A stretch of 64,000 nt of DNA from a phage. Below the pieces are notes generated by a model that ran no database searches, had not been told where the DNA came from, and saw nothing but the letters and a program-made list of their open reading frames with translations. The first letter of the stretch is position 1; every line of letters starts with the position of its first letter. A program made the position numbers and the translations under genes. Positions 21,125-29,756 of the stretch are shown one piece after another. The stretch is from the NCBI GenBank assembly GCA_015370545.1, contig GCA_015370545.1_3932.1, one strand, 5' to 3'.

Positions 21125-21910
21125 ATGGGTATTGTAAAAATAATTAATGGTGATATCTTTGCCGCATTTGATAAAGGTAAGTTTGACATCATCGGTCACG
21201 GTTGCAACTGTATGAATTTAATGAGTGCAGGTATCGCTGACAAGATTTCTAAACTTTACCCAAAAGCATATGAGACCGATACAGAAGTTTATCTGTATGC
21301 AGGTGGTATAGGACACAAACCCTGTGAAAATTTACTAGGTAATTTCTCTGTAGCACGTTTAAAACAAGGTCGTATAGCTAATCTTTACACTCAGCTTAAG
21401 ACTGGTAAAGATGCCCGATACAGTGCTTTAGAGTCATCTTTGAAACAGCTTAACAGATACTGTGAAGTTAATCAGTTGAAGAAAGTTGGGTTACCTATGA
21501 TTGGTGCAGGTATCGGTGGACTTGACCCTCAAGCCGTTACCGTTATCATTAATCAGGTGATGAAGAGTGTAGATGTGTATCTGTATGTCTACGAAGGAGA
21601 GATGTACCACAAGTTACGCTCAGGTTGGAATAACTACTGCGAACCAGAATACTTTGCAGGTGTAGTAACGTTCACAGACAATGCAGTTACCCTCTTCAGA
21701 CGAAGAAAAGGTAAGATACATCAAAGTAACCCTCCGGTTGAAAAGATGTCTCTAAGTAACGCTCTAGTTACCCACCTGTCGAAGAGCAATCACAGAATTG
21801 CAGTAACATTTGGCAGTGATGCAGACACATATATCTATGCAAGGACTGATGAAGATATCGAGGAGATTTTCTCATCACAAGAAGTTACCTTCTTAGACGC
21901 AAAGAACTAA
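21125..21910 (+). CDS. macro-domain protein (Poa1p-like)
   Basis: 261 aa; N-terminal IIGHGCNCMNLMSAGIA matches the H-x-CNC...G-x-GIA signature recalled from yeast Poa1p. Confidence 0.6.
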   Translation: MGIVKIINGDIFAAFDKGKFDIIGHGCNCMNLMSAGIADKISKLYPKAYETDTEVYLYAGGIGHKPCENLLGNFSVARLKQGRIANLYTQLKTGKDARYSALESSLKQLNRYCEVNQLKKVGLPMIGAGIGGLDPQAVTVIINQVMKSVDVYLYVYEGEMYHKLRSGWNNYCEPEYFAGVVTFTDNAVTLFRRRKGKIHQSNPPVEKMSLSNALVTHLSKSNHRIAVTFGSDADTYIYARTDEDIEEIFSSQEVTFLDAKN

Positions 21911-21940
21911 TAAACTCTGTAGAATATTCACAATAGATTA

Positions 21941-21986
21941 AGCCTTCCTTATCTGGTAAATTTTTCAGGTAAGGAAGGCTTTTTTA
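21941..21986 (+). terminator. intrinsic terminator
   Basis: 10-bp stem GCCTTCCTTA / TAAGGAAGGC followed by TTTTTT. Confidence 0.65.
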
Positions 21987-22170
21987 TTTCAAGATTGTGC
22001 AGGTAGAGTTCTGTAGAGAAATCTGTAGAGAAAATTTTGAACTCCAAAGAGAAAATTCATTTTCAAACTGTGCAGGTAATCTCCAAAGAGCTTTTTCATT
22101 TTCAAAACGTGCAGACCCCGCTCAGGTCGGGCAAGAAAAATCATTTTAGAATTGTGCAGGTAGGTGGATG
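21984..22170. repeat. four tandem direct repeats, core CATTTTCAAA-N-GTGCAGGTA
   Basis: copies at about 21984, 22056, 22095 and 22140; CTCCAAAGAG also repeated twice. Confidence 0.6.
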
Positions 22171-22338
22171 CAGGTGGGGATGTCGCCATTTCTCACAAGG
22201 CTAACACATCTGGAAATAAAAGTCAACAGAAAAATTTGTAGCGGATTGAAAAATAATTCTTGATTGTAGTTCTGTTTTGTGGTAGTCGCGTGCGCCCGTT
22301 TCATTACAATTTTTGCAAAAATATTTTTAAAATTCCTA

Positions 22339-22430
22339 TTGACTCTTTGAGTATGGTTATCTAATATTTGCATCAACGGGGAGGGAATGACCTTCCCCAC
22401 TAAGTAAAGTCCTAAACTGGAGATTCTAAA
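22339..22430 (+). promoter_or_regulatory. type A cassette: promoter + 5' stem-loop + conserved SD
   Basis: TTGACT-17-TAATAT, then hairpin GGGGAGGG-AATGA-CCTTCCCC, then CCTAAACTGGAGATTCTAAA-ATG. Confidence 0.6.
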
Positions 22431-22811
22431 ATGGCATACCGTGCACCTAAATTCATCAACAAAGACAACTTCCGCAACGCACTGGAGAAGTCACTTGATG
22501 AAAAATTTAACGGCAAATTGATTGTTGTTCACGCATTCAATTTTAAGTATGATATTAACGGGAATAAAATCAACCATTACACGGCAACCATGTTAGATGG
22601 TACGCTATCAAGTGAAAAAGCCGTACTGAATGCACTTGCAGGACGTGGTAAAAACCTGATAAGCTGCAATAAGAGACGTTATCAAGGTGGCGCATATGGT
22701 TATGATGATGCTGTTTACCATCTTGAAAATATGGGCTATTCAGTGGAGAAAGCTGGAGCGTCTCAAATAATTGGTAGTGATGGTTATGTGACAATCTTCA
22801 AAATTAAATAA
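22431..22811 (+). CDS. hypothetical small protein (cassette gene 1)
   Basis: 126-aa ORF behind type A element. Confidence 0.5.
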   Translation: MAYRAPKFINKDNFRNALEKSLDEKFNGKLIVVHAFNFKYDINGNKINHYTATMLDGTLSSEKAVLNALAGRGKNLISCNKRRYQGGAYGYDDAVYHLENMGYSVEKAGASQIIGSDGYVTIFKIK

Positions 22812-22815
22812 AAGT

Positions 22816-22897
22816 ACTTTACAAGGGGCTTATAGTTCGATAAAGTAAGCCCCAGATAAAGAGCTTTATCACTCAATCCTAAATTGGAGATTCAAAA
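22816..22897 (+). promoter_or_regulatory. type B cassette: TTTACA + GC hairpin + conserved SD
   Basis: AGTACTTTACA, hairpin GGGGCTTA...TAAGCCCC, AGATAAAGAGCTTTA...CCTAAATTGGAGATTCAAAA-ATG. Confidence 0.55.
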
Positions 22898-23155
22898 ATG
22901 GCTATTATCAAAAACGTTGTAGTTCCTGCAAAAACTCGTGATGACGCTCGCATCATGGCGAAAAAGTTAGGCGGGAAAGTGGTTGACAACGGAAAACAAT
23001 CTGCTGTAAGATGGAGCGTGAAGGCTGATAAGCAACTAACCTTAAAACGCAGTTCAAACAATCTTTTTAAAGGTGTAAAATCACTCGGTAAAGTGAACGT
23101 GTTTACCAAAAAAGGCTATAAAATGCACTTATCATTAACTGGCAATTTAATCTGA
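22898..23155 (+). CDS. hypothetical small protein (cassette gene 2)
   Basis: 85-aa ORF behind type B element. Confidence 0.5.
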   Translation: MAIIKNVVVPAKTRDDARIMAKKLGGKVVDNGKQSAVRWSVKADKQLTLKRSSNNLFKGVKSLGKVNVFTKKGYKMHLSLTGNLI

Positions 23156-23163
23156 TAAAGTAC

Positions 23164-23245
23164 TTTACAGGGGGCTTAAAAGCTGATATCTTAAGCCCCA
23201 GATAAAGAGCTTTACCACTCAATCCTTAAACTAGGAGATTCAAAA
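23164..23245 (+). promoter_or_regulatory. type B cassette
   Basis: same architecture as 22816-22897. Confidence 0.55.
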
Positions 23246-23758
23246 ATGAAAACTGTAGAAGCTACCTTTGAAGTTGTAAAAGAAAAATTTTCCATCATTT
23301 ACGAAGCTGTTAATTGCTTTGAAGCAAGCCATAACCTTGATAATTGGGAGTTTACAGATGACCATCAAGGCGGCGTGACTATTAAAAACCCCAACTGTCA
23401 GCGTAATGATTTTAAATATGCAATCCCTTTACATTACAGCCTTAAACAGCTTTCAAGTGACTATGCAAAACAAGGCCGGGAAAATCCATCAAAAGAGGCT
23501 TACATAAGCTTACAGAAAGAACTAGAAAGAGATTTAGAGGCTTCAGAATACAACCTTGCCGCGAAAGTTGTCGATGCAAATGGTCAAACAATTTTAGATA
23601 GTTTTTATATTGGTTACGCTTTCGATTGGTGCTATAGTGACGGCGATGATTTAGAGGATAGACTAAAAGAAGAGGTGAGCAATTCAGACGCAGAATCTGA
23701 AGTATTAGAACGCTTGGAAGCATTAAAAGATTCAGTGATGAATATCTTTAAGAACTAA
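23246..23758 (+). CDS. hypothetical protein (cassette gene 3)
   Basis: 170-aa ORF behind type B element. Confidence 0.5.
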   Translation: MKTVEATFEVVKEKFSIIYEAVNCFEASHNLDNWEFTDDHQGGVTIKNPNCQRNDFKYAIPLHYSLKQLSSDYAKQGRENPSKEAYISLQKELERDLEASEYNLAAKVVDANGQTILDSFYIGYAFDWCYSDGDDLEDRLKEEVSNSDAESEVLERLEALKDSVMNIFKN

Positions 23759-23767
23759 ATAGATTTC

Positions 23768-23845
23768 TTTACACGGGGCTATCAAGCTGATAAGATAGCC
23801 CCAGATAAAGAGATTTATCAACTATCCTAAACTGGAGATTCAAAA
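23768..23845 (+). promoter_or_regulatory. type B cassette
   Basis: TTTACA, hairpin GGGGCTAT...ATAGCCCC, conserved SD. Confidence 0.55.
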
Positions 23846-24142
23846 ATGAAATTATCAAATAAAGTCCGTGAAAATCTAAGCAAGTTACTCAACAAAATTG
23901 ATTTTATCGAGACATCAAGGAATAGTCATGATGTTATGGAATGGTTACACGGAAAAATCAAAGGCCGTCGTGTAGTGATTTGCTTATGGAATAGTTGCAG
24001 GGAATATAAAAAACCTGTATTACAAGTCAATATCTATGATGATACTTTTAAAAGCCCTGTAAAGTCTAAAAGTGATTTATTAGAATCCTATGAGATAACT
24101 GTAAATGGCAAAGTATCAAGTAAAGAGGAAACACCATGTTAA
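23846..24142 (+). CDS. hypothetical small protein (cassette gene 4)
   Basis: 98-aa ORF behind type B element. Confidence 0.5.
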   Translation: MKLSNKVRENLSKLLNKIDFIETSRNSHDVMEWLHGKIKGRRVVICLWNSCREYKKPVLQVNIYDDTFKSPVKSKSDLLESYEITVNGKVSSKEETPC

Positions 24143-24468
24143 TGACTGGTATCACTGCAATCATTGCCATTTTCGCGCTATATAAGGCATATAAAGCCTA
24201 TAATCTAGCAAATAAGGCAATCACACAGCAGGTTAGCAATAGCCTTGTAGAAAGCTTTCTAGGGCGTCTCAGTGATGAGCAAATAAAGCGGTTAGAAATG
24301 AGCTTCAGATTCAAAGCGAAAACCTATCAGATAAGTGACATCTTCAAGGATGATTTCCAGTTAGTCGATGATTATAATTCTCTGATAAATGCTTTAAATA
24401 TCAGTGACTTAAAAGACTACTACGCTGTAATTGTTCAAGAGTTGAGCAAACGAAAACAAAACTGTTGA
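24136..24468 (+). CDS. hypothetical small protein with N-terminal hydrophobic helix (cassette gene 5)
   Basis: 110 aa; start overlaps upstream stop, no own cassette element. Confidence 0.45.
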   Translation: MLMTGITAIIAIFALYKAYKAYNLANKAITQQVSNSLVESFLGRLSDEQIKRLEMSFRFKAKTYQISDIFKDDFQLVDDYNSLINALNISDLKDYYAVIVQELSKRKQNC

Positions 24469-24557
24469 CACTGATTTTTAGATAGATTAAATTACACATC
24501 AACGGGGAGGGAACAACCTTCCCACTAAATAAAGTCCTTAAACTAGGAGATTCTAAA
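24465..24557 (+). promoter_or_regulatory. type A cassette
   Basis: TTGACA-17-TAAATT, hairpin GGGGAGGG-AACAA-CCTTCCC, conserved SD. Confidence 0.6.
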
Positions 24558-24830
24558 ATGTATACTACTAACAATGGCCTCACTTTGAACGTCACACTAC
24601 GTCACTATGTAGATGGTGTCATGCACTTTGAAGATTTACAAGCTGAACAACATATCTTAGATTGGCAAGTCGCAGGACTCCAAAAAACTGCTACGGGATA
24701 CGGTAAAAAGATTCCAACTAGTTGGAAAGTTCACTATGAAGGACGTTTGCGCAGAATTTATCAAGATGTGCAAAGCAATAGCGCATCGAGTTACATTATA
24801 GTAAAAGGTGAAAAACTGCATTTAGTATAA
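24558..24830 (+). CDS. hypothetical small protein (cassette gene 6)
   Basis: 90-aa ORF behind type A element. Confidence 0.5.
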   Translation: MYTTNNGLTLNVTLRHYVDGVMHFEDLQAEQHILDWQVAGLQKTATGYGKKIPTSWKVHYEGRLRRIYQDVQSNSASSYIIVKGEKLHLV

Positions 24831-24835
24831 AGTAC

Positions 24836-24915
24836 TTTACATGGGGTTTAAAAGTTGGTATCTTAAGCCCCAGATAAAGAGCTTTACCCCTAAATCCTAA
24901 ATTGGAGATTCAAAA
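24836..24915 (+). promoter_or_regulatory. type B cassette
   Basis: TTTACA, hairpin GGGGTTTA...TAAGCCCC, conserved SD. Confidence 0.55.
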
Positions 24916-25320
24916 ATGGCTATTAATAATCGTGAGTTATCAATCTTAAAAGCACGTTTAACCGTTAATCGAATCAATGTTATCACGTCATCAGCACCAG
25001 ACGAGACATTACACAACATTATCGGGAAGATTCAAGGTGTTATCTTAGACGTTGAGAATGTAAAAAACTCATTAGCAGACGTTGCAGCAGGTGTTACACT
25101 AGACGGCGCACAATATGAAATGATTGACATGTTAGGCAAATCAAAGGTTATGAATAAAGAGTTAGACTTAAAAATGTTTCGATTTGCCGTGAAAGTATGG
25201 CTATCTGTCGAGTATGATGCTAATTTTGCAATTGCTGATTTCTTTGCCACTTGGTTGCAACGTAACTTAACAAATCATGATTTTCGTGATATCTGTGATG
25301 CAATTTACGCAGAACTTTAA
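24916..25320 (+). CDS. hypothetical protein (cassette gene 7)
   Basis: 134-aa ORF behind type B element. Confidence 0.5.
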   Translation: MAINNRELSILKARLTVNRINVITSSAPDETLHNIIGKIQGVILDVENVKNSLADVAAGVTLDGAQYEMIDMLGKSKVMNKELDLKMFRFAVKVWLSVEYDANFAIADFFATWLQRNLTNHDFRDICDAIYAEL

Positions 25321-25328
25321 AAATTTTA

Positions 25329-25420
25329 TTGACACTGATTTTTAGATAGACTAAATTACACATCAACGGGGAGGGAACAACCTTCCCACTAAATAAAGTC
25401 CTTAAACTAGGAGATTCAAA
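25329..25420 (+). promoter_or_regulatory. type A cassette
   Basis: near-identical to 24465-24557. Confidence 0.6.
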
Positions 25421-25963
25421 ATGAAATGCTTTCACGGTACTACTCAAGAAAACTTTATCAACCTGATTAATAACGGTGATAAACCATCAGGTGTATGGAA
25501 TTGTTCGGATATGGACGGCAATTTTTACGTGTACCCAGAAAATAAACTCTATGGTGATGATGAGGAAGAGATAGCATCGGAAGGTATCCAGCAAGCTCTA
25601 GGAAATGCCACTATCACGGCAGCTTTTCAGATGAAAACTCAAAATATTGTTATCTTAGAACTTGACATTCCAGAGGATGAGCTAAATGATGATTATTCTT
25701 GTGATAACATGTCAAATATAGCAAGCTTTACAGAGTACTTTGATGTAAATTGGATTAAAAAGGTCTATACAACAGAGTTCAACGCTATGTATTCACCTTT
25801 TTGTCTCCCTTCACTGGATAACCCAAATTTGAATTATCTTGATGAAACATTGGAGCTACTTGCTAAAAGTATCCAACAATCCGACAGTATTCAGGTTTTT
25901 TGTGACATCATGGATACACTGACAGAAAACATTGTAGAGAGTGATTTAAAGGTCTTTTTCTAA
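25421..25963 (+). CDS. hypothetical acidic protein (cassette gene 8)
   Basis: 180-aa ORF behind type A element. Confidence 0.5.
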   Translation: MKCFHGTTQENFINLINNGDKPSGVWNCSDMDGNFYVYPENKLYGDDEEEIASEGIQQALGNATITAAFQMKTQNIVILELDIPEDELNDDYSCDNMSNIASFTEYFDVNWIKKVYTTEFNAMYSPFCLPSLDNPNLNYLDETLELLAKSIQQSDSIQVFCDIMDTLTENIVESDLKVFF

Positions 25964-26029
25964 AAACCTATACATTCACCTTATAAACACTGATTAACCC
26001 CTTACAGGGGCTTTTAGAGGGCTTAAATC

Positions 26030-26263
26030 ATGCTTACAACCATTTATCTCATCCTTTCTATCTGTAACGGTCATTCATGTGACTTTAAAGGGCTTGAAGA
26101 GTTTACAGGAAGTAAAGAAAATGCTATTCAGGTTTGCCAGATAGCAAGACAAGACTATCCCGCCAGTGACGACATTCAATGCTACTTTAAGACAGAAGAT
26201 GAAGACGGCATCTATTTTGACAGCGTTGACGGTCAATATGAAATTATCATTGAAAAAGACTAG
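26030..26263 (+). CDS. hypothetical small protein (cassette gene 9)
   Basis: 77-aa ORF; own SD after short hairpin CCCCTT-ACA-GGGGC. Confidence 0.45.
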   Translation: MLTTIYLILSICNGHSCDFKGLEEFTGSKENAIQVCQIARQDYPASDDIQCYFKTEDEDGIYFDSVDGQYEIIIEKD

Positions 26264-26354
26264 ACAAGCCTGATAAAAGTCTGTAAATTGTCAATCAACG
26301 GGGAGGGAATGACCTTCCCCACTAAATAAAGTCCTTAAACTAGGAGATTCAAAA
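26261..26354 (+). promoter_or_regulatory. type A cassette
   Basis: TAGACA-17-TAAATT, hairpin GGGGAGGG-AATGA-CCTTCCCC, conserved SD. Confidence 0.55.
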
Positions 26355-26696
26355 ATGGCTTATGTAACCGTAATTACCGATAAAGCTGGCTCATCTTGGT
26401 CAACTCAGGTTAGTGATAAGATGTCGCCTATGCAGTGCCTAAAATACTTTGAGCAGTGGAACAAAGGCGAGGATGTAAGCCCCTTTCAAGTGATGCAAAT
26501 CATCCATACAGATAACGAAGGGAATAAAACGACCTTGAACAGTGAATACTACGCAAGCCGTTTTGAAACGAGAAGTAAAACAATGAAGCTTTTACGTGAA
26601 TCCGGCTATTCTCATATTGCCGCGCTAATCTGGGATGACCTGCTAAAAAGCCAGCGTATCAGCTATGTAAAACCTGAAAAAATATTCATCAGTTAA
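26355..26696 (+). CDS. hypothetical protein (cassette gene 10)
   Basis: 113-aa ORF behind type A element. Confidence 0.5.
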   Translation: MAYVTVITDKAGSSWSTQVSDKMSPMQCLKYFEQWNKGEDVSPFQVMQIIHTDNEGNKTTLNSEYYASRFETRSKTMKLLRESGYSHIAALIWDDLLKSQRISYVKPEKIFIS

Positions 26697-26825
26697 TCAA
26701 TAACTTACAAAAAACTTTTAAAAAAGTGTTGACAATACCCCTTGACATTGGTAACTTTGTTCGAGGGGGTTTATCTAAAAGGGATTCACTTAATAGATTC
26801 TTTATAGATAAACTTAAAAAATTGC

Positions 26826-26917
26826 TTGCAAAGGCAAATCAAAACAAGTAAATTACTAATCAACGGGAAGGGATTAACCTTCCCACTAAGTAAAGTCCTT
26901 AAACTAGGAGATTCAAA
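26826..26917 (+). promoter_or_regulatory. type A cassette
   Basis: TTGCAA-17-TAAATT, hairpin GGGAAGGG-ATTAA-CCTTCCC (compensatory change), conserved SD. Confidence 0.55.
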
Positions 26918-27448
26918 ATGAACAAGTTTCAAGCTATCAACTATATTCGCTCATCCAACGTTATGACTAAGCCCGTTAAAGATACCTTCGAATTTCGTTG
27001 CAACGGTGTACACTTTGCAACTATCACTAAATCAGAAAACGGGGCTTATTATATACATCGTCGTAATGCCTCTACTGTTGTAGTCTCTCACTTTATGCAA
27101 GCTGTAGCAGAACTGTTACCGCTATTCTTAGGTATTTACTTAGATGAGTGCAAAAACGTTCGCAACCACGTTAAAGACCTTTTAAATGGTTATAAAATGG
27201 CTTATGAACGTTCTATCAAGAATCTTAACAAGTTCTATAAAGCCCCTGAAAATACTGTTTCAATGGCTTACAGTGTAAGCGGTGAGTTGGTTAGCCTCTT
27301 TGAAGTGGAAGAAATCGCGTTGCATGACTTACGCCCTAGCGGTTACTCTAAGACACTAGAGGAAGGTTTAACGTTCAATATCAAGAACTTAGAAAAAACT
27401 TTAAAAGATATTGAAAAAGATATTGACGAGACAATCAAAAATCTGTAA
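26918..27448 (+). CDS. hypothetical protein (cassette gene 11)
   Basis: 176-aa ORF behind type A element. Confidence 0.5.
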   Translation: MNKFQAINYIRSSNVMTKPVKDTFEFRCNGVHFATITKSENGAYYIHRRNASTVVVSHFMQAVAELLPLFLGIYLDECKNVRNHVKDLLNGYKMAYERSIKNLNKFYKAPENTVSMAYSVSGELVSLFEVEEIALHDLRPSGYSKTLEEGLTFNIKNLEKTLKDIEKDIDETIKNL

Positions 27449-27510
27449 ATTGTCAATCAACGGGGGATAACCTCCCCCACTAAACAAAATCCTAAACTGG
27501 AGTTATCAAG
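27423..27510 (+). promoter_or_regulatory. type A cassette
   Basis: TTGACG-17-TAAATT overlapping the upstream gene's 3' end; hairpin GGGGGA-TAACC-TCCCCC (compensatory variant). Confidence 0.55.
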
Positions 27511-27774
27511 ATGGAAAACGTAGAATTAACCACACTTTTACAAATTGCAACCGACAAAGAAGATGTAGCATTATTCCACCGTATCGAAAGCGATTTGTTC
27601 AATGGTGAAATCATTAAAGAATCTTACGAAGTTGTCGGATTCAAAGATGGTAAAGCATTTGGCTTTTTTGACCTCGACAAAAGCAAAGCGGTTACAATGT
27701 ACGATGTTCTATCTTGTGAAATTCTGACAAAATACAACGAAAAAAGGCTTGCAACCTACGCCAATATGCAGTAA
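27511..27774 (+). CDS. hypothetical small protein (cassette gene 12)
   Basis: 87-aa ORF behind type A element. Confidence 0.5.
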   Translation: MENVELTTLLQIATDKEDVALFHRIESDLFNGEIIKESYEVVGFKDGKAFGFFDLDKSKAVTMYDVLSCEILTKYNEKRLATYANMQ

Positions 27775-27841
27775 ATTACTAATCAACGGGGAGGGAATGA
27801 CCTTCCCACTAAACAAAGTCCTAAACTGGAGAATCTAAATT
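27749..27841 (+). promoter_or_regulatory. type A cassette
   Basis: TTGCAA-17-TAAATT, hairpin GGGGAGGG-AATGA-CCTTCCC, conserved SD. Confidence 0.55.
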
Positions 27842-28090
27842 ATGTCAACTATCCGCGTAACTGTTAATGCTTATGGCTGCCACAAACTTGATGCAAAATT
27901 CGATATCGGTGGAACAGATAACACCTTTGACCTTATCAAAATGCTGATTCAGCAGGTGATACCAGATTATAACCCTACTGATGACTTCTGGAAAGATGCC
28001 GTAAAAGAAGCCATAAACGAGGAATCTCACTACCATTATTGGGGTGACTTGATTGTCTCTCTATACTACAGCAAACAAGGCTACAACTAA
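27842..28090 (+). CDS. hypothetical small protein (cassette gene 13)
   Basis: 82-aa ORF behind type A element. Confidence 0.5.
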   Translation: MSTIRVTVNAYGCHKLDAKFDIGGTDNTFDLIKMLIQQVIPDYNPTDDFWKDAVKEAINEESHYHYWGDLIVSLYYSKQGYN

Positions 28091-28128
28091 TCGACGCAAC
28101 GGGGCTAAATAGCCCCAGATACCTTTAC

Positions 28129-28152
28129 AGCCCCTTAAATGGGGCTTTTTTA
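28129..28152 (+). terminator. intrinsic terminator closing the cassette array
   Basis: AGCCCC-TTAAAT-GGGGCT hairpin followed by TTTTTT. Confidence 0.7.
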
Positions 28153-29756
28153 CGTCTATCGAATCCTTATACAATCCCTTTCCCTTTCCTTTCTAGAATC
28201 TTATCAGACCTTAAAAAGCAATAACTCTATAGTCTACTCTATAACCTCTTATCAAATCAACTTAAATATAAGCCAATAACCCCAGAAAGGGGATGGCCCA
28301 TTAAAACGCTCTATAAAGCTCTATAACAGCCTTATCAACCTAACTTAAGCAATCATATTAACCCACTCTAAAAAGCCCTTTATAGAGCTTCCCAGAGCCT
28401 TAAAAGAATCTTATAAGGGTGAAAGCTTATAGGCTGGCTAGTATCTTGTGAATAACTAAACAATCCCCTTGATAGTCACTAAAAAGCATGTTATAGGGGC
28501 TATAAAGTTACTTCAAAGTAACGTAAAAAAGGCTATAAAGTTACGTAAATGCTAGCCCCCTTAACATTTTCTTAACAATTTCTTAACAATCCCTACATAG
28601 TTATGCTTGTTAGAGACTTGTTAGCCCCTTGTTAAATCTCTGTTACAACCATGTAAAAGCCTTGTAAGAACCTTTGACATAGCCTTAAAAGCCCTGTAAA
28701 GCCCTATAAAGAGCTATCCATACAGTTGGGCTGTAGTTACTAGGGAGAGACTTAAAAGGGGCTATACAGAGCTATAGAGGGCTTTTAAGAGGTATGTTTA
28801 AAGAATCACTAAGAATCAAAGGGAACGATAAGAAAAGAGATAGTGACCATGTTAATAGCTTGTTAAAAAGATTAAACACTTGTTAGAAACTTGTTAATTA
28901 TCCCTACAAAATAACTCTTTAAAATTAACTTGTTAGCTCTTGTTAGTCATCTGTTAAGACTCTGTAAAGACTATTCAGCACTTGTTAGAAAACTGTTAAG
29001 TTCTTGTTAGTTCTGTTAAGAAACTGTTAAGACCTTTGGAGAGTTGTTAAGAGCTTGAGAGAGTTGTTAAGAGATTGTTAAGGATATTTTAAAATTCTGC
29101 AAAGTACTTGTAAGGGAGCTGTTAAGGGCTACCAAGCAGATATACATCTTCTACAGATATTTTTCAGTTCCTTCAAAGACCCTAAAAAATGACTTGATAG
29201 CCCTATTTTATAAAAATTTTAAAATTCTGAATAATTACCTAGACAGTCTTTTAAAAATACAGGTAGAAACAGGCTTATAAGATACCTTGTTAGTACCGTG
29301 TTAGACCTTGTGAGATAAGGTCTGTGAAGATATTCCTGTTAAGTTTGTTAAAACAGTCTATATAGAGGCTTAGTAGTACCTAGTGAACATCTATAGAGGG
29401 TATCATAGCTAACCTAGAGATTAAGAGGTGTATAGGGGCTTCTAAGAGGGTATAGAGAGATGGTTAAGGTGATTGTATAGGTTGTTAAGAAGGATTGTTA
29501 GAAGAGTGTTTAGAGGGCTATTTAGAAGGGTTATACAGAGGGCTATTAAGACCACTAGATAGTTACTAAGATACTATATAGTACTATATAACTATATAGA
29601 GAGTAAGATTAAGAAGGTTGTTAAGAAGGATAGATATCTTATTCACATATGATGGTGACCCAGAGGTTGGGACAACCGATAAAATTTTATAAAAATATAA
29701 ATTTCGTAAATTTTACTCAATAAAAAGCCCCCAATTAAGGAGGCTCTTAAGATATT
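28153..29756. repeat. ORF-free region dense in short direct repeats (iteron-like)
   Basis: no ORF of 60 aa or more in 1.6 kb; roughly 25-30 copies by eye of CTTGTTAG / CTGTTAAG / GTTGTTAAGA, plus GCTATAAAG, CCTTAAAAG and TTTTAAAATTCTG repeats. Confidence 0.7.

Follow-up and report, generated by a model that had tools for sequence, protein, structure and literature searches.

Promoter and stem-loop cassettes of PeSL-like design in the small-gene array of a Felix-O1-like phage

Promoter-early stem-loops (PeSLs) are known from T4-type phages (RB49/phi1, PST/T4 and nt-1/KVP40) (Arbiol 2010, PMC2839356; Comeau 2014, PMC4122927), and no paper in the searchable literature ties them to Felix-O1-like phages. 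In the RB49 genome, PeSLs read as an A-tract and TTGACA, with a GGGG..CCCC hairpin and, as ribosome site, GGAGAATCAAAATG; the hairpin lies in the promoter spacer, over the -10, or beyond the -10 at a distance of 10 nt. Terminator activity and mini-circle formation have been shown experimentally for the RB49 elements.

The small-gene array and its cassettes

The region at 22339-28152 of the 64-kb stretch of phage DNA that was analysed (64,000 nt, here called the window) is 99.9% identical to Escherichia phage vB_EcoM-Ro111lw (Felixounavirus). An earlier note on this DNA had described thirteen small genes, eleven of them behind cassettes of two types, and all of these were located: 13 small + strand ORFs (77-180 aa) span 22431-28090, with a type A cassette upstream of seven and a type B cassette upstream of four. 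As the note had also claimed, the coding sequences are unrelated (pairwise BLASTP among the 13 ORFs, best E-value 0.14). The two ORFs without a cassette are W110, whose start (24136) overlaps the W98 stop codon, and W77 (26030), which is preceded by a 66-nt spacer that includes CCCCTTACAGGGGCTTTT.

Core patterns of the cassettes gave 6, 5 and 4 matches in the window, where shuffled sequence would be expected to give 0.00-0.08, and none of the matches lay outside the array. Neither a profile search nor a covariance-model search detected extra copies anywhere in the window. A terminator scan found just two intrinsic terminators, one on each flank of the array. In the following list each cassette runs up to the ATG of the first gene named, and the promoters, start sites (TSS) and genes driven are predictions.

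21940..21981, + strand: intrinsic terminator (17-pair stem, then T-run), left limit of the array; t13 in the list of the Felix O1 genome paper
22339..22430, + strand: type A cassette A1, driving W126 (22431-22811); -35 TTGACT 22339-22344, -10 TAATAT 22362-22367, TSS ~22374, hairpin 22378-22398, SD 22419-22422
22809..22897, + strand: type B cassette B1, driving W85 (22898-23155); -35 TTTACA 22818-22823, -10 TAAAGT 22841-22846, TSS ~22853, SD 22886; inner helix 22825-22853, outer 22809-22821 paired with 22857-22869
23155..23245, + strand: type B cassette B2, driving W170 (23246-23758); -35 23164-23169, -10 TATCTT 23187-23192, TSS ~23199, SD 23234; inner helix 23171-23199, outer 23155-23167 paired with 23203-23215
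23759..23845, + strand: type B cassette B3, driving the coupled pair W98 (23846-24142) and W110 (24136-24468); -35 23768-23773, -10 TAAGAT 23791-23796, TSS ~23803; differing inner stem GGGGCTATC/GATAGCCCC (three compensated pairs), outer ATAGAT/ATTTAT
24465..24557, + strand: type A cassette A2, driving W90 (24558-24830); -35 TTGACA 24465-24470, -10 TAAATT 24488-24493, TSS ~24500, hairpin 24504-24523, SD 24546
24827..24915, + strand: type B cassette B4, driving W134 (24916-25320); -35 24836-24841, -10 TATCTT 24859-24864, TSS ~24871; inner stem GGGGTTTAA/TTAAGCCCC, with a U.G pair
25329..25420, + strand: type A cassette A3, 98% identical to A2, driving the two-gene unit W180 (25421-25963) and W77 (26030-26263); TSS ~25364, hairpin 25368-25387
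26261..26354, + strand: type A cassette A4, driving W113 (26355-26696); -35 TAGACA over the W77 stop codon, -10 26284-26289, TSS ~26296, hairpin 26300-26320
26826..26917, + strand: type A cassette A5, driving W176 (26918-27448); -35 TTGCAA, -10 26849-26854, TSS ~26861, hairpin 26865-26884 in shifted register
27423..27510, + strand: type A cassette A6, driving W87 (27511-27774); -35 TTGACG within the W176 3' end, TSS ~27458, short hairpin GGGGGA/TCCCCC 27462-27478
27749..27841, + strand: type A cassette A7, driving W82 (27842-28090); -35 TTGCAA within the W87 3' end, TSS ~27784, hairpin 27788-27807
28129..28152, + strand: intrinsic terminator, right limit of the array; listed as t23 in the same paper on Felix O1

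The resemblance to PeSLs put forward in the earlier note was borne out by the layout of the RB49 elements. In both, a stop codon in an AT-rich tract is followed by a sigma70-like promoter (17-bp spacer), a GGGG..CCCC stem-loop, an SD and the ATG. A stem-loop between the -35 and -10 or over the -10 corresponds to type B, and one just past the -10 to type A, the stem-loop of RB49 208/207 likewise starting 10 nt after the -10. Small ORFans make up the arrays in which both occur, indel or replacement junctions between close relatives lie at both, with crossovers within the element, and degraded 'half' elements are found in both. The region is probably the accessory-gene ('hyperplastic') end of the early unit in a Felix-O1-like myophage, built of PeSL-type cassettes.

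There are also differences. The lineage here is Ounavirinae, whereas PeSLs belong to Straboviridae, and no sequence homology between the two could be established: the type A profile matched one RB49 PeSL (E 1.7e-4), and a BLAST search with that PeSL matched Krischvirus only. Here there are just two discrete, highly conserved families, with identity running through the entire 5' leader. Moreover, the type B hairpin has ~20 bp in three helices round the whole promoter, while the RB49 hairpins that were read are single stems of 6-9 bp.

Promoters and stem-loops of the two types

Nine of the 11 promoters have 17-bp spacing and agree with the consensus at 9-10 of 12 positions, and it is from this consensus geometry that promoters and start sites are inferred; a weak -35 (TTGCAA) is present in two type A copies. 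In published RT-PCR data for Felix O1, transcripts of the homologous ORFs 16, 20, 21 and 22 peaked at 5 min, those of ORFs 17, 19 and 23 only at 25 min. Each cassette would be a self-contained expression module between one gene's stop codon and the next ATG, and unmodified host RNA polymerase would fire at all 11 promoters shortly after infection. With all of them firing in a terminator-bounded array of 5.8 kb, many short, strongly translated early mRNAs would be expected. The leader is AU-rich, and its GGAG Shine-Dalgarno sequence partly pairs with an upstream UCC(U).

In type A, an A-tract precedes a sigma70-like promoter with 17-bp spacing; a G-run/C-run hairpin comes next, and a GGAG ribosome site follows it. 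The stem, GGGGAGGG/CCTTCCCC, includes one G.U pair, and owing to such G.U pairs the sense strand folds better. The hairpin always starts 10 nt past the -10, a distance free of indels in all 64 copies, and so lies ~2-4 nt past the predicted start site. Among 61 copies from 11 genomes there were 33 distinct hairpin variants (stems 4-8 bp, loops 4-8 nt), nearly all of -10 to -14 kcal/mol. The compensatory changes reported earlier in two type A copies turned out not to be classical double substitutions: the copy at 26865 has a register shift (GGGAAGG/CCTTCCC) and the one at 27462 a shortened stem (GGGGGA/TCCCCC). Although 96% of cells are paired, 94% are still paired when the homopolymeric arms are slid by one base, and double changes affect just two pairs, so that covariation in type A is weak. 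Bas63 has an uncompensated stem mismatch in three type A copies, and SUSP1 and Mijalis carry a hairpin-less promoter-plus-RBS cassette upstream of the W176 homologue, indicating that the hairpin is dispensable at least there. A stable hairpin near the 5' end is a geometry known to protect E. coli mRNAs, and by analogy with stabilisers such as the ompA 5' UTR, the type A hairpin may act at the mRNA 5' end against 5'-end-dependent decay.

For type B, the earlier description had missed the promoter, and the hairpin is far longer than was described. Type B is also a promoter, with TTTACA, 17 bp and then TAAAGT, TATCTT or TAAGAT, which sits within a ~20-bp hairpin (~-26 kcal/mol, loops 10-13 nt) made of three helices that were independently predicted by RNAalifold; the -35, the -10 and the predicted start site are all inside it. 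The reading of covariation as evidence for a selected structure is well supported here: 92.7% of cells are paired, compared with 31-56% when partners are slid, and double compensatory changes occur in four of nine inner pairs and in one outer pair. The -10 TA...T is invariant in 48 copies (Erwinia phages included), whereas other bases of the same hairpin loop vary. The large hairpin ends ~30 nt upstream of the SD, which is contacted only by a distinct UCC(U)/(A)GGA pairing of 3-4 bp.

The full type B hairpin would form solely in read-through transcripts from upstream, locally started transcripts lacking it, and in read-through RNA it may act as an intercistronic barrier, a processing site or a 3' stabiliser. 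A late promoter embedded in a hairpin is likewise present at the T4 genes e and soc, where read-through and local transcripts fold differently. The T4 hairpin, however, sequesters the RBS, which the large type B hairpin does not reach.

Alternative roles of the stem-loops

In the original PeSL model the stem-loops attenuate or terminate transcription arriving from upstream and so insulate each cassette, with the promoter restarting each gene. A stem-loop from RB49 had terminator activity in lacZ fusions (Arbiol et al., PMC2839356), both hairpin types here would be present in read-through RNA since they are sited past the upstream stop codon and ahead of the next RBS, and the type B hairpin is strong. 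On the other hand, a T-run follows none of the 11 hairpins, and terminator-like sites were found solely at the array flanks. Lacking a U-tract, the cassette stem-loops are not intrinsic terminators, and the sequence gives no support to the 'terminator' part of what defines a PeSL. In addition, the type A hairpin is downstream of its own promoter, where a strong terminator would abort its own transcript, and insulation does not need a strictly fixed 10-nt distance from the -10. Insulation is a tentative explanation, less likely than the preferred reading.

Somewhat less likely still is that type B serves mainly for intercistronic processing of the RNase III type, its likeness to a promoter being secondary or coincidental. 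RNase III substrates such as the R sites of T7 early mRNA, where cleavage leaves a protective 3' hairpin, fit type B in size and interrupted-helix shape (~20 bp, three coaxial helices, small internal loops, inner and outer covariation). The predicted start site coincides with the 3x3 internal loop on its 3' side, so that 5' ends made by cleavage would resemble those made by local initiation. Processing would not require the TTTACA-17/18-TA...T that is kept in 48 of 48 copies, with TA in an otherwise variable loop, and no matching family for type B was present in Rfam. The likenesses to T7 RNase III sites and to ompA-type stabilisers are regarded as functional analogies only.

The inverted repeats could also work as double-stranded DNA, serving as operators at which a phage protein turns the early promoters off. 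Their positions are classical (the type B repeat overlaps the -10, and that of type A covers +4 to +25) and they are kept across genera. Half-site spacing and arm length vary, however (the loops in both types, the stems in type A), and arms within one genome (GGGGCTTAA versus GGGGCTATC, GGGGAGGG versus GGGGGA) differ beyond what one dimeric protein would accept. Conservation applies to the complementarity of the arms, with G.U pairs included that would be A-C mismatches on the opposite strand, and the type B outer helices join the -35 region to sequence 40 nt away, which is not an operator layout. An operator function is thus improbable.

Gene exchange at the cassettes

Type A cassettes occur in 244 phage records and those of type B in 288. 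Almost all of these records are Ounavirinae (Felixounavirus, Suspvirus, Mooglevirus), and a few stand under other organism names; type B was additionally found in 29 Erwinia phage records. In a comparison with one Erwinia phage, 12 of 15 nucleotide matches were type B cassettes, and the shared proteins were just 31-48% identical.

The earlier note had expected gain or loss of cassettes at element boundaries, and relatives do differ by whole gene-plus-cassette units, in five variable slots that are all at cassettes, rather than sharing a fixed gene set. The main indel hot spot is A3, where a 67-aa or 82-aa ORF is inserted in relatives, and W87 is missing from Felix O1, SPJ41, UAB_Phi87, NBSal004 and Bas63. 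All five junctions inspected fall inside chimeric cassettes, the left portion coming from the left cassette and the right portion from the right, as homologous recombination between cassettes would leave them. Endpoints of synteny breaks lay within cassettes in 31 of 36 cases (cassettes are 17% of the array), an enrichment that is inflated because the intergenic space of the array is nearly all cassette and gene-sparing junctions must fall there. Hairpin and promoter variants are spread as a mosaic over positions and genomes, and the conservation of the cassettes could stem as much from gene conversion among copies as from functional selection.

That the repeats are neutral leftovers of serial intergenic duplication, or selfish REP/MITE-like elements with no role in expression or gene flux, is hardly credible: the Felix O1 genome paper recorded them merely as direct repeats and concerted evolution can hold copies alike without selection, but they always have a single orientation, an adjoining start codon and a properly spaced promoter and SD, they are the best-conserved nucleotides between genera with such divergent proteins, their structure is preserved by compensatory changes, and the junction cassettes are clean chimeras.

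Two other systems of mobile accessory genes are comparable. Lambdoid morons are also single accessory genes with their own promoter, inserted between neighbours, but they carry terminators, have no flanking homology in common and are believed to insert illegitimately, whereas the units here share conserved linkers and their neighbours' orientation and have no internal terminators. Integron attC cassettes similarly combine unrelated small genes, imperfect inverted repeats of 60-100 bp between them and cassette-level gain and loss, an analogy also made by the PeSL authors (Arbiol 2010, PMC2839356). Integron cassettes are, however, promoterless and are moved by an integrase via folded attC, while here there is a promoter per cassette and the junctions look like plain homologous crossovers.

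In the preferred reading, that of PeSL-type cassettes, the comparison of genomes shows the near-identity of 60-95 bp between cassettes to be a portable homology arm, and cassette-cassette recombination to delete, insert or replace gene-plus-cassette units and shuffle promoter and hairpin variants across positions. The cassettes appear to turn on early each of the 11 small genes behind them, and appear to mark the sites at which genes are gained, lost or swapped among related phages. The PeSL design, known from T4-like phages, is found here in another phage lineage.

Organization of the array and its cassettes

Over its whole length (22339-28152) the array was 99.9% identical to Escherichia phage vB_EcoM-Ro111lw (Felixounavirus, Ounavirinae), whose record lists each of the 13 ORFs as hypothetical. 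The ORFs, named here by W and their length in amino acids, encode 77-180 aa, lie without exception on the plus strand and are unrelated to each other in their coding sequences (best pairwise E-value 0.14), as the earlier note had stated. Within 21500-29500, a terminator scan detected intrinsic-terminator-like sites only at 21940-21981 and 28129-28146, which flank the array and correspond to t13 and t23 of the Felix O1 paper.

Repeat finding and alignment recovered the eleven cassettes that had been proposed from the sequence, seven of type A and four of type B. The core cassette patterns gave 6, 5 and 4 matches in 64 kb (0.00-0.08 expected), all within the array, and searching the whole window with a profile and with a covariance model added no extra copies. 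Two of the 13 ORFs have no cassette, namely W110, which overlaps the stop codon of W98, and W77, which follows W180 after a 66-nt spacer. According to gene-order maps, W98 and W110 are always inherited as a pair and W180 and W77 are either both present or both absent, so that one unit may hold one or two genes. The W180/W77 spacer (25964-26029) is devoid of a cassette; it carries a GAGGG ribosome site and a small inverted repeat, opposite in polarity and with a T-run behind it (CCCCTTACAGGGGCTTTT).

All type A copies have an A-tract (AAAAA) directly before the -35 element, which reads TTGACA, TTGACT, TTGACG, TAGACA or TTGCAA and is followed after exactly 17 bp by TAAATT (once TAATAT). Then come 10 nt ending in ATCAAC, the G-run/C-run hairpin, ACTAAATAAAGTCC, (T)TAAACT(A)GGAG and, after 7-9 nt, ATG. 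By standard geometry transcription would start on the CAA of ATCAAC, and the hairpin would therefore begin 2-4 nt from the 5' end of the mRNA. The 10-nt distance between -10 and stem showed no indel in 64 copies from 12 genomes. Among 61 copies of the hairpin there were 33 different sequences, almost all of which fold at -10 to -14 kcal/mol, with the sense strand usually the better folder owing to G.U pairs.

The earlier note had argued from covariation that the hairpins are selected as structures. For type A the structure is indeed kept, but formal covariation is weak: 96% of cells were paired on a model-fitted alignment, 94% were still paired when the partners were slid by one base, and double changes were found at two pairs only. 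Three type A copies of the related phage Bas63 contain an uncompensated stem mismatch, and SUSP1 and Mijalis each have one cassette without the hairpin. RNAalifold gave a simple stem only for type A, and a larger structure around this hairpin was rejected. A mini-ORF starting at the ATG of the AATGA loop (MTFPTK*) was also discarded, being absent from copies with an AACAA or ATAA loop.

Type B had been described as a GGGGCTTA...TAAGCCCC hairpin. The hairpin is present, but the description was incomplete, since the promoter, which a scan finds in all four copies, had been missed. It consists of TTTACA, a spacer of 17 bp (18 in two Erwinia phage copies) and TAAAGT, TATCTT, TAAGAT or a similar hexamer. 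The opening T and A of the -10 were invariant in 48 distinct copies, despite lying in a loop whose other bases vary. The upstream stop codon falls inside a (T/A)AAAGTAC motif, and folding of the read-through RNA showed the invariant flanks ATAAAGTACTTTA and TAAAGAGCTTTAT to be complementary to each other; type B folds at about -26 kcal/mol. RNAalifold, applied independently to the 48 copies, predicted helices of 6, 5 and 9 bp, three in all, with small internal loops (2x2 and 3x3) between them.

For this element the inference from covariation to structure held. Pairing reached 92.7% of cells, compared with 31-56% in slid controls. When the arms were anchored on the flanking invariant motifs and not on structure, double compensatory changes were seen at four of the nine inner pairs, including GC to UA in Erwinia phages, while a fifth pair alternated between C-G and U.G; in the outer helices one pair alternated between G-C and U-A. 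With the -35, the -10 and the predicted start site all inside it, the hairpin can form only in transcripts that arrive from upstream, or in single-stranded DNA. A MotA-box reading of the TGCTTTA found in some copies was rejected by inspection, since this motif lies 19 nt from the -10 and TTTACA-17 fits sigma70 better. In T4 middle promoters the MotA box is about 12 nt from the -10.

The ribosome sites are alike in all eleven cassettes, with GGAG 7-9 nt before ATG and the Shine-Dalgarno sequence partly paired with an upstream UCC(U) to give a small UCC/GGA hairpin that covers it. Among 138 sites from 12 genomes, 82 read CCT-AAAYT-GGAG, 56 read CCTT-AAACT-AGGAG, which has one U-A pair more, and none was mixed, a coupling that is possibly mere linkage because just 7 nt separate the two sites. 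In Erwinia phages this place is taken by CCTT/AAGG or CCTC/GAGG.

Example ribosome sites with the coupled variants
23221-23248 and 22408-22433, ribosome sites

Gene exchange at the cassettes

Phage records containing type A numbered 244 and those containing type B 288, with about five copies each; nearly all were Ounavirinae. Type B also occurred in 29 Erwinia phage records; the 17.5-kb Erwinia phage locus examined contained no copy of type A. Type B cassettes accounted for 12 of the 15 nucleotide matches between the array and this locus, and the proteins in common were only 31-48% identical.

Gene-order maps of 12 genomes, made with start codons chosen according to the Shine-Dalgarno sequence and checked by eye, revealed a conserved backbone (W170-W98-W110-W90-W134 ... 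W113-W176 ... W82) and five variable slots, every one of them at cassettes. The gain and loss at cassette level for which the earlier note had suggested looking thus exists, and there is no fixed gene set. Felix O1 lacks W126, W85, W180, W77 and W87, an additional ORF of 67 or 82 aa precedes W180 in most other relatives, and further small ORFs are found in single genomes.

At five junctions where one genome has a single cassette and another has a variable gene between two, the single cassette was aligned to both of the others. All five were chimeric, following the left cassette up to a point within the common core and the right cassette beyond it, with no filler. Cruder BLAST chaining placed 31 of 36 break endpoints in cassettes, which make up 17% of the array. 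Since there is hardly any intergenic space outside cassettes, part of this enrichment is inevitable, and the clean chimeras carry more weight as evidence.

The versions of promoter and hairpin were mosaically distributed, and different phages had different promoter versions at the same junction. The cassettes flanking W90-W134 were near-identical inside each genome and differed between genomes. Together these patterns point to exchange or conversion among cassette copies. Cassette-level gene exchange would also explain why relatives that are about 90% identical have only 53-66% of the region in common (best BLAST matches).

W113 and W176 are separated by a gap of 221 nt, of which the fifth type A copy fills the last 92 nt. 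The part before it (26697-26826) contains tandem TTGACA motifs, which in phage AYO145A are annotated as a promoter. As NBSal004 and SUSP1 have a small ORF in this slot (48 or 73 aa), it may be what is left of a lost gene.

Relation to promoter-early stem-loops and possible roles of the hairpins

Promoter-early stem-loops (PeSLs) of T4-type phages are defined as elements in which an AT-rich tract holding the stop codon of the upstream gene is combined with a sigma70-like promoter and a GGGG..CCCC stem-loop, for which five positions relative to the promoter are distinguished, and which end in a Shine-Dalgarno sequence with ATG; they are clustered among ORFans at indel junctions (Arbiol 2010, PMC2839356; Comeau 2014, PMC4122927). 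Further PeSL traits are termination or attenuation of transcription by the stem-loop and the release of mini-circles when neighbouring elements recombine, for which Arbiol 2010 used inverse PCR on infected cells. The Felix-type cassettes follow this plan. Nine of the eleven match 9-10 of the 12 promoter consensus positions with a 17-bp spacer and the other two read TTGCAA-17-TAAATT; promoter spacing and TA...T are kept in more than 100 copies from 12 genomes. The AT-rich stretch before the -35 is represented in type A by the AAAAA tract and in type B by the motif that holds the upstream stop codon, and all eleven copies possess the Shine-Dalgarno sequence and start codon. The stem-loop lies between -35 and -10, overlapping the -10, in type B, and downstream of the -10 in type A. 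All copies are gathered in a single 5.8-kb array that is indel-associated, with crossovers inside the elements. Relatedness in sequence and a T4-like genome are lacking, the genome being a Felixounavirus; because PeSL is an architectural class and not a sequence family, this limits homology and not mechanistic likeness.

Direct reading of RB49 intergenic regions revealed the same design, with TTGACA-GGGGATC..GATCCCC-TATAAT, hairpins overlapping TAAGAT and, in one case (208/207), a hairpin 10 nt after the -10, as in type A. The RB49 PeSLs read all end in GGAGAATCAAAATG, which is almost the ribosome module of the Felix-type cassettes, and the two groups have GGAGA(A/T)TC(A/T)AAAATG in common. 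The minus strand of RB49 100000-145000 holds eight PeSL copies ending in GGAGAATCAAA(A)ATG in 45 kb. Modules near that of RB49 occur nine times in the window, always inside the array, and SUSP1 contains a 14-mer identical to it, reflecting either convergence or exchange. The type A and type B profiles gave one marginal match in 45 kb of RB49 (E 1.7e-4), and BLAST of the matched PeSL retrieved Krischvirus only, so that common descent is not demonstrable from these searches.

Given the agreement in architecture and context and the same design in RB49, the likeness to PeSLs proposed in the earlier note is essentially right, and the elements are best classed as PeSL-type cassettes from a new phage lineage. 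Two points are added here: the type B promoter lies in a long covarying hairpin, and the cassettes are crossover points for accessory genes in Ounavirinae. Literature searches found, in the library covered, no paper linking PeSLs with Felix O1 or Felixounavirus, and no transcriptome or start-site data for Felix-O1-like phages. In the Felix O1 paper, type B and the type A promoter are recorded as "direct repeats" of 57 and 39 bp, respectively. The authors of that paper detected the homologous ORFs by RT-PCR at 5 or 25 min, and left transcription past the terminators and its timing unexplained.

The promoters would fire with host polymerase early in infection. The type A hairpin would guard the 5' end of its own mRNA, and that of type B may act on read-through RNA as a barrier, a processing site or a 3' stabiliser. 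RNase III sites of the T7 R-site type are interrupted RNA duplexes of about two turns that lie between cistrons; type B, with its covariation-supported 6+5+9 bp, may be one, and type A is too short for such a site. The stem-loops could instead be operators, i.e. palindromic protein-binding sites. This is disfavoured, as an operator would have half-sites of fixed sequence and spacing, whereas here neither the stems and loops keep their lengths nor the arms their sequence, be it within a genome or from one genome to another, and only the complementarity is retained. Plain terminators would require U-tracts, and none of the eleven cassette hairpins is followed by one, ACTAAATAAAG or AGATAAAGAG standing there instead. 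Neutral repeats are contradicted by the cross-genus conservation and the compensatory changes. Hairpin promoters of the N4 kind for a phage RNA polymerase were set aside, the Felix O1 paper reporting no such enzyme, and an Rfam scan of 21500-29500 returned three sub-threshold chance matches only. Integron cassettes, which go with an integrase gene and attC sites with R/L cores, differ in being promoterless, whereas each cassette here has a promoter.

A wider reading, which is improbable, takes type B as a dual-use element and the linker design as a currency of accessory-gene exchange. The host-type promoter, wholly inside a covarying hairpin of ~20 bp, would be cut in read-through transcripts (e.g. 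by RNase III), processed and locally initiated mRNAs would converge on one 5' end, and the upstream mRNA would retain a protective 3' hairpin. More broadly, linkers of promoter, hairpin and ribosome site, with the GGAGA(A/T)TCAAAATG ribosome module also seen in RB49, would be a general currency that unrelated virulent coliphage lineages converged on or traded.

Cargo genes, flanking sequences and significance

No informative match was obtained with Pfam (all 13 ORFs), PADLOC (10 ORFs) or a PDB sequence search (W180 only), and the 10 ORFs tested against PHROGs all matched families of unknown function only. W180 is the counterpart of Bas63 gp107, reported to be more essential in E. coli S17-1 and to resemble RNA 2'-phosphotransferase faintly. 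Its N-terminus reads MKCFHGT; an ADP-ribosyltransferase-like fold is a lead and not a finding. Four genes (3.5 kb) upstream of W180 there is a macro-domain gene:

21125-21910, 261-aa ORF with a Macro domain (Pfam E 7.7e-07), directly upstream of the array

Proteins with Macro domains act on ADP-ribose, by binding or hydrolysing it, and this one is therefore a possible partner of an ADP-ribosyltransferase-like W180.

Between the upstream terminator and the first cassette there is a non-coding stretch of ~350 bp (21985-22330) with about four copies of a 23-40-nt repeat, CATTTTCAAA(C/T)TGTGCAGGTA, kept in SUSP1 and Mijalis. Part of it (22092-22158) is 78% identical to an Erwinia phage in which almost nothing else aligns. 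This repeat may be a regulatory or origin-like element. After the closing terminator, about 1.6 kb of non-coding sequence (28150-29750) contains dense short repeats with a 10-11 bp period (CTTGTTAG, CTGTTAAG, CTATAAAG). The gap is also present in Felix O1, Bas63, SUSP1 and Mijalis, and the GenBank record of Ro111lw ends within it (at about window position 29167). It may serve as an origin, a packaging site or a terminal repeat. At 39412-44688 there are 26 clustered tRNA genes, as is typical of Felix-O1-like phages.

Felix-O1-like phages are widely used in typing, biocontrol and therapy of Salmonella and E. coli, and the cassettes supply 11 candidate early promoters, as well as natural, tolerated slots with ready-made expression signals that could be used in engineering. 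The 13 ORFans form a mobile accessory set and are candidates for host takeover or counter-defence. With the cassettes recognised, the modular gene-shuffling model of PeSLs is extended past the T4-like phages to a lineage with tractable genetics (Bas63, PhageMaP).
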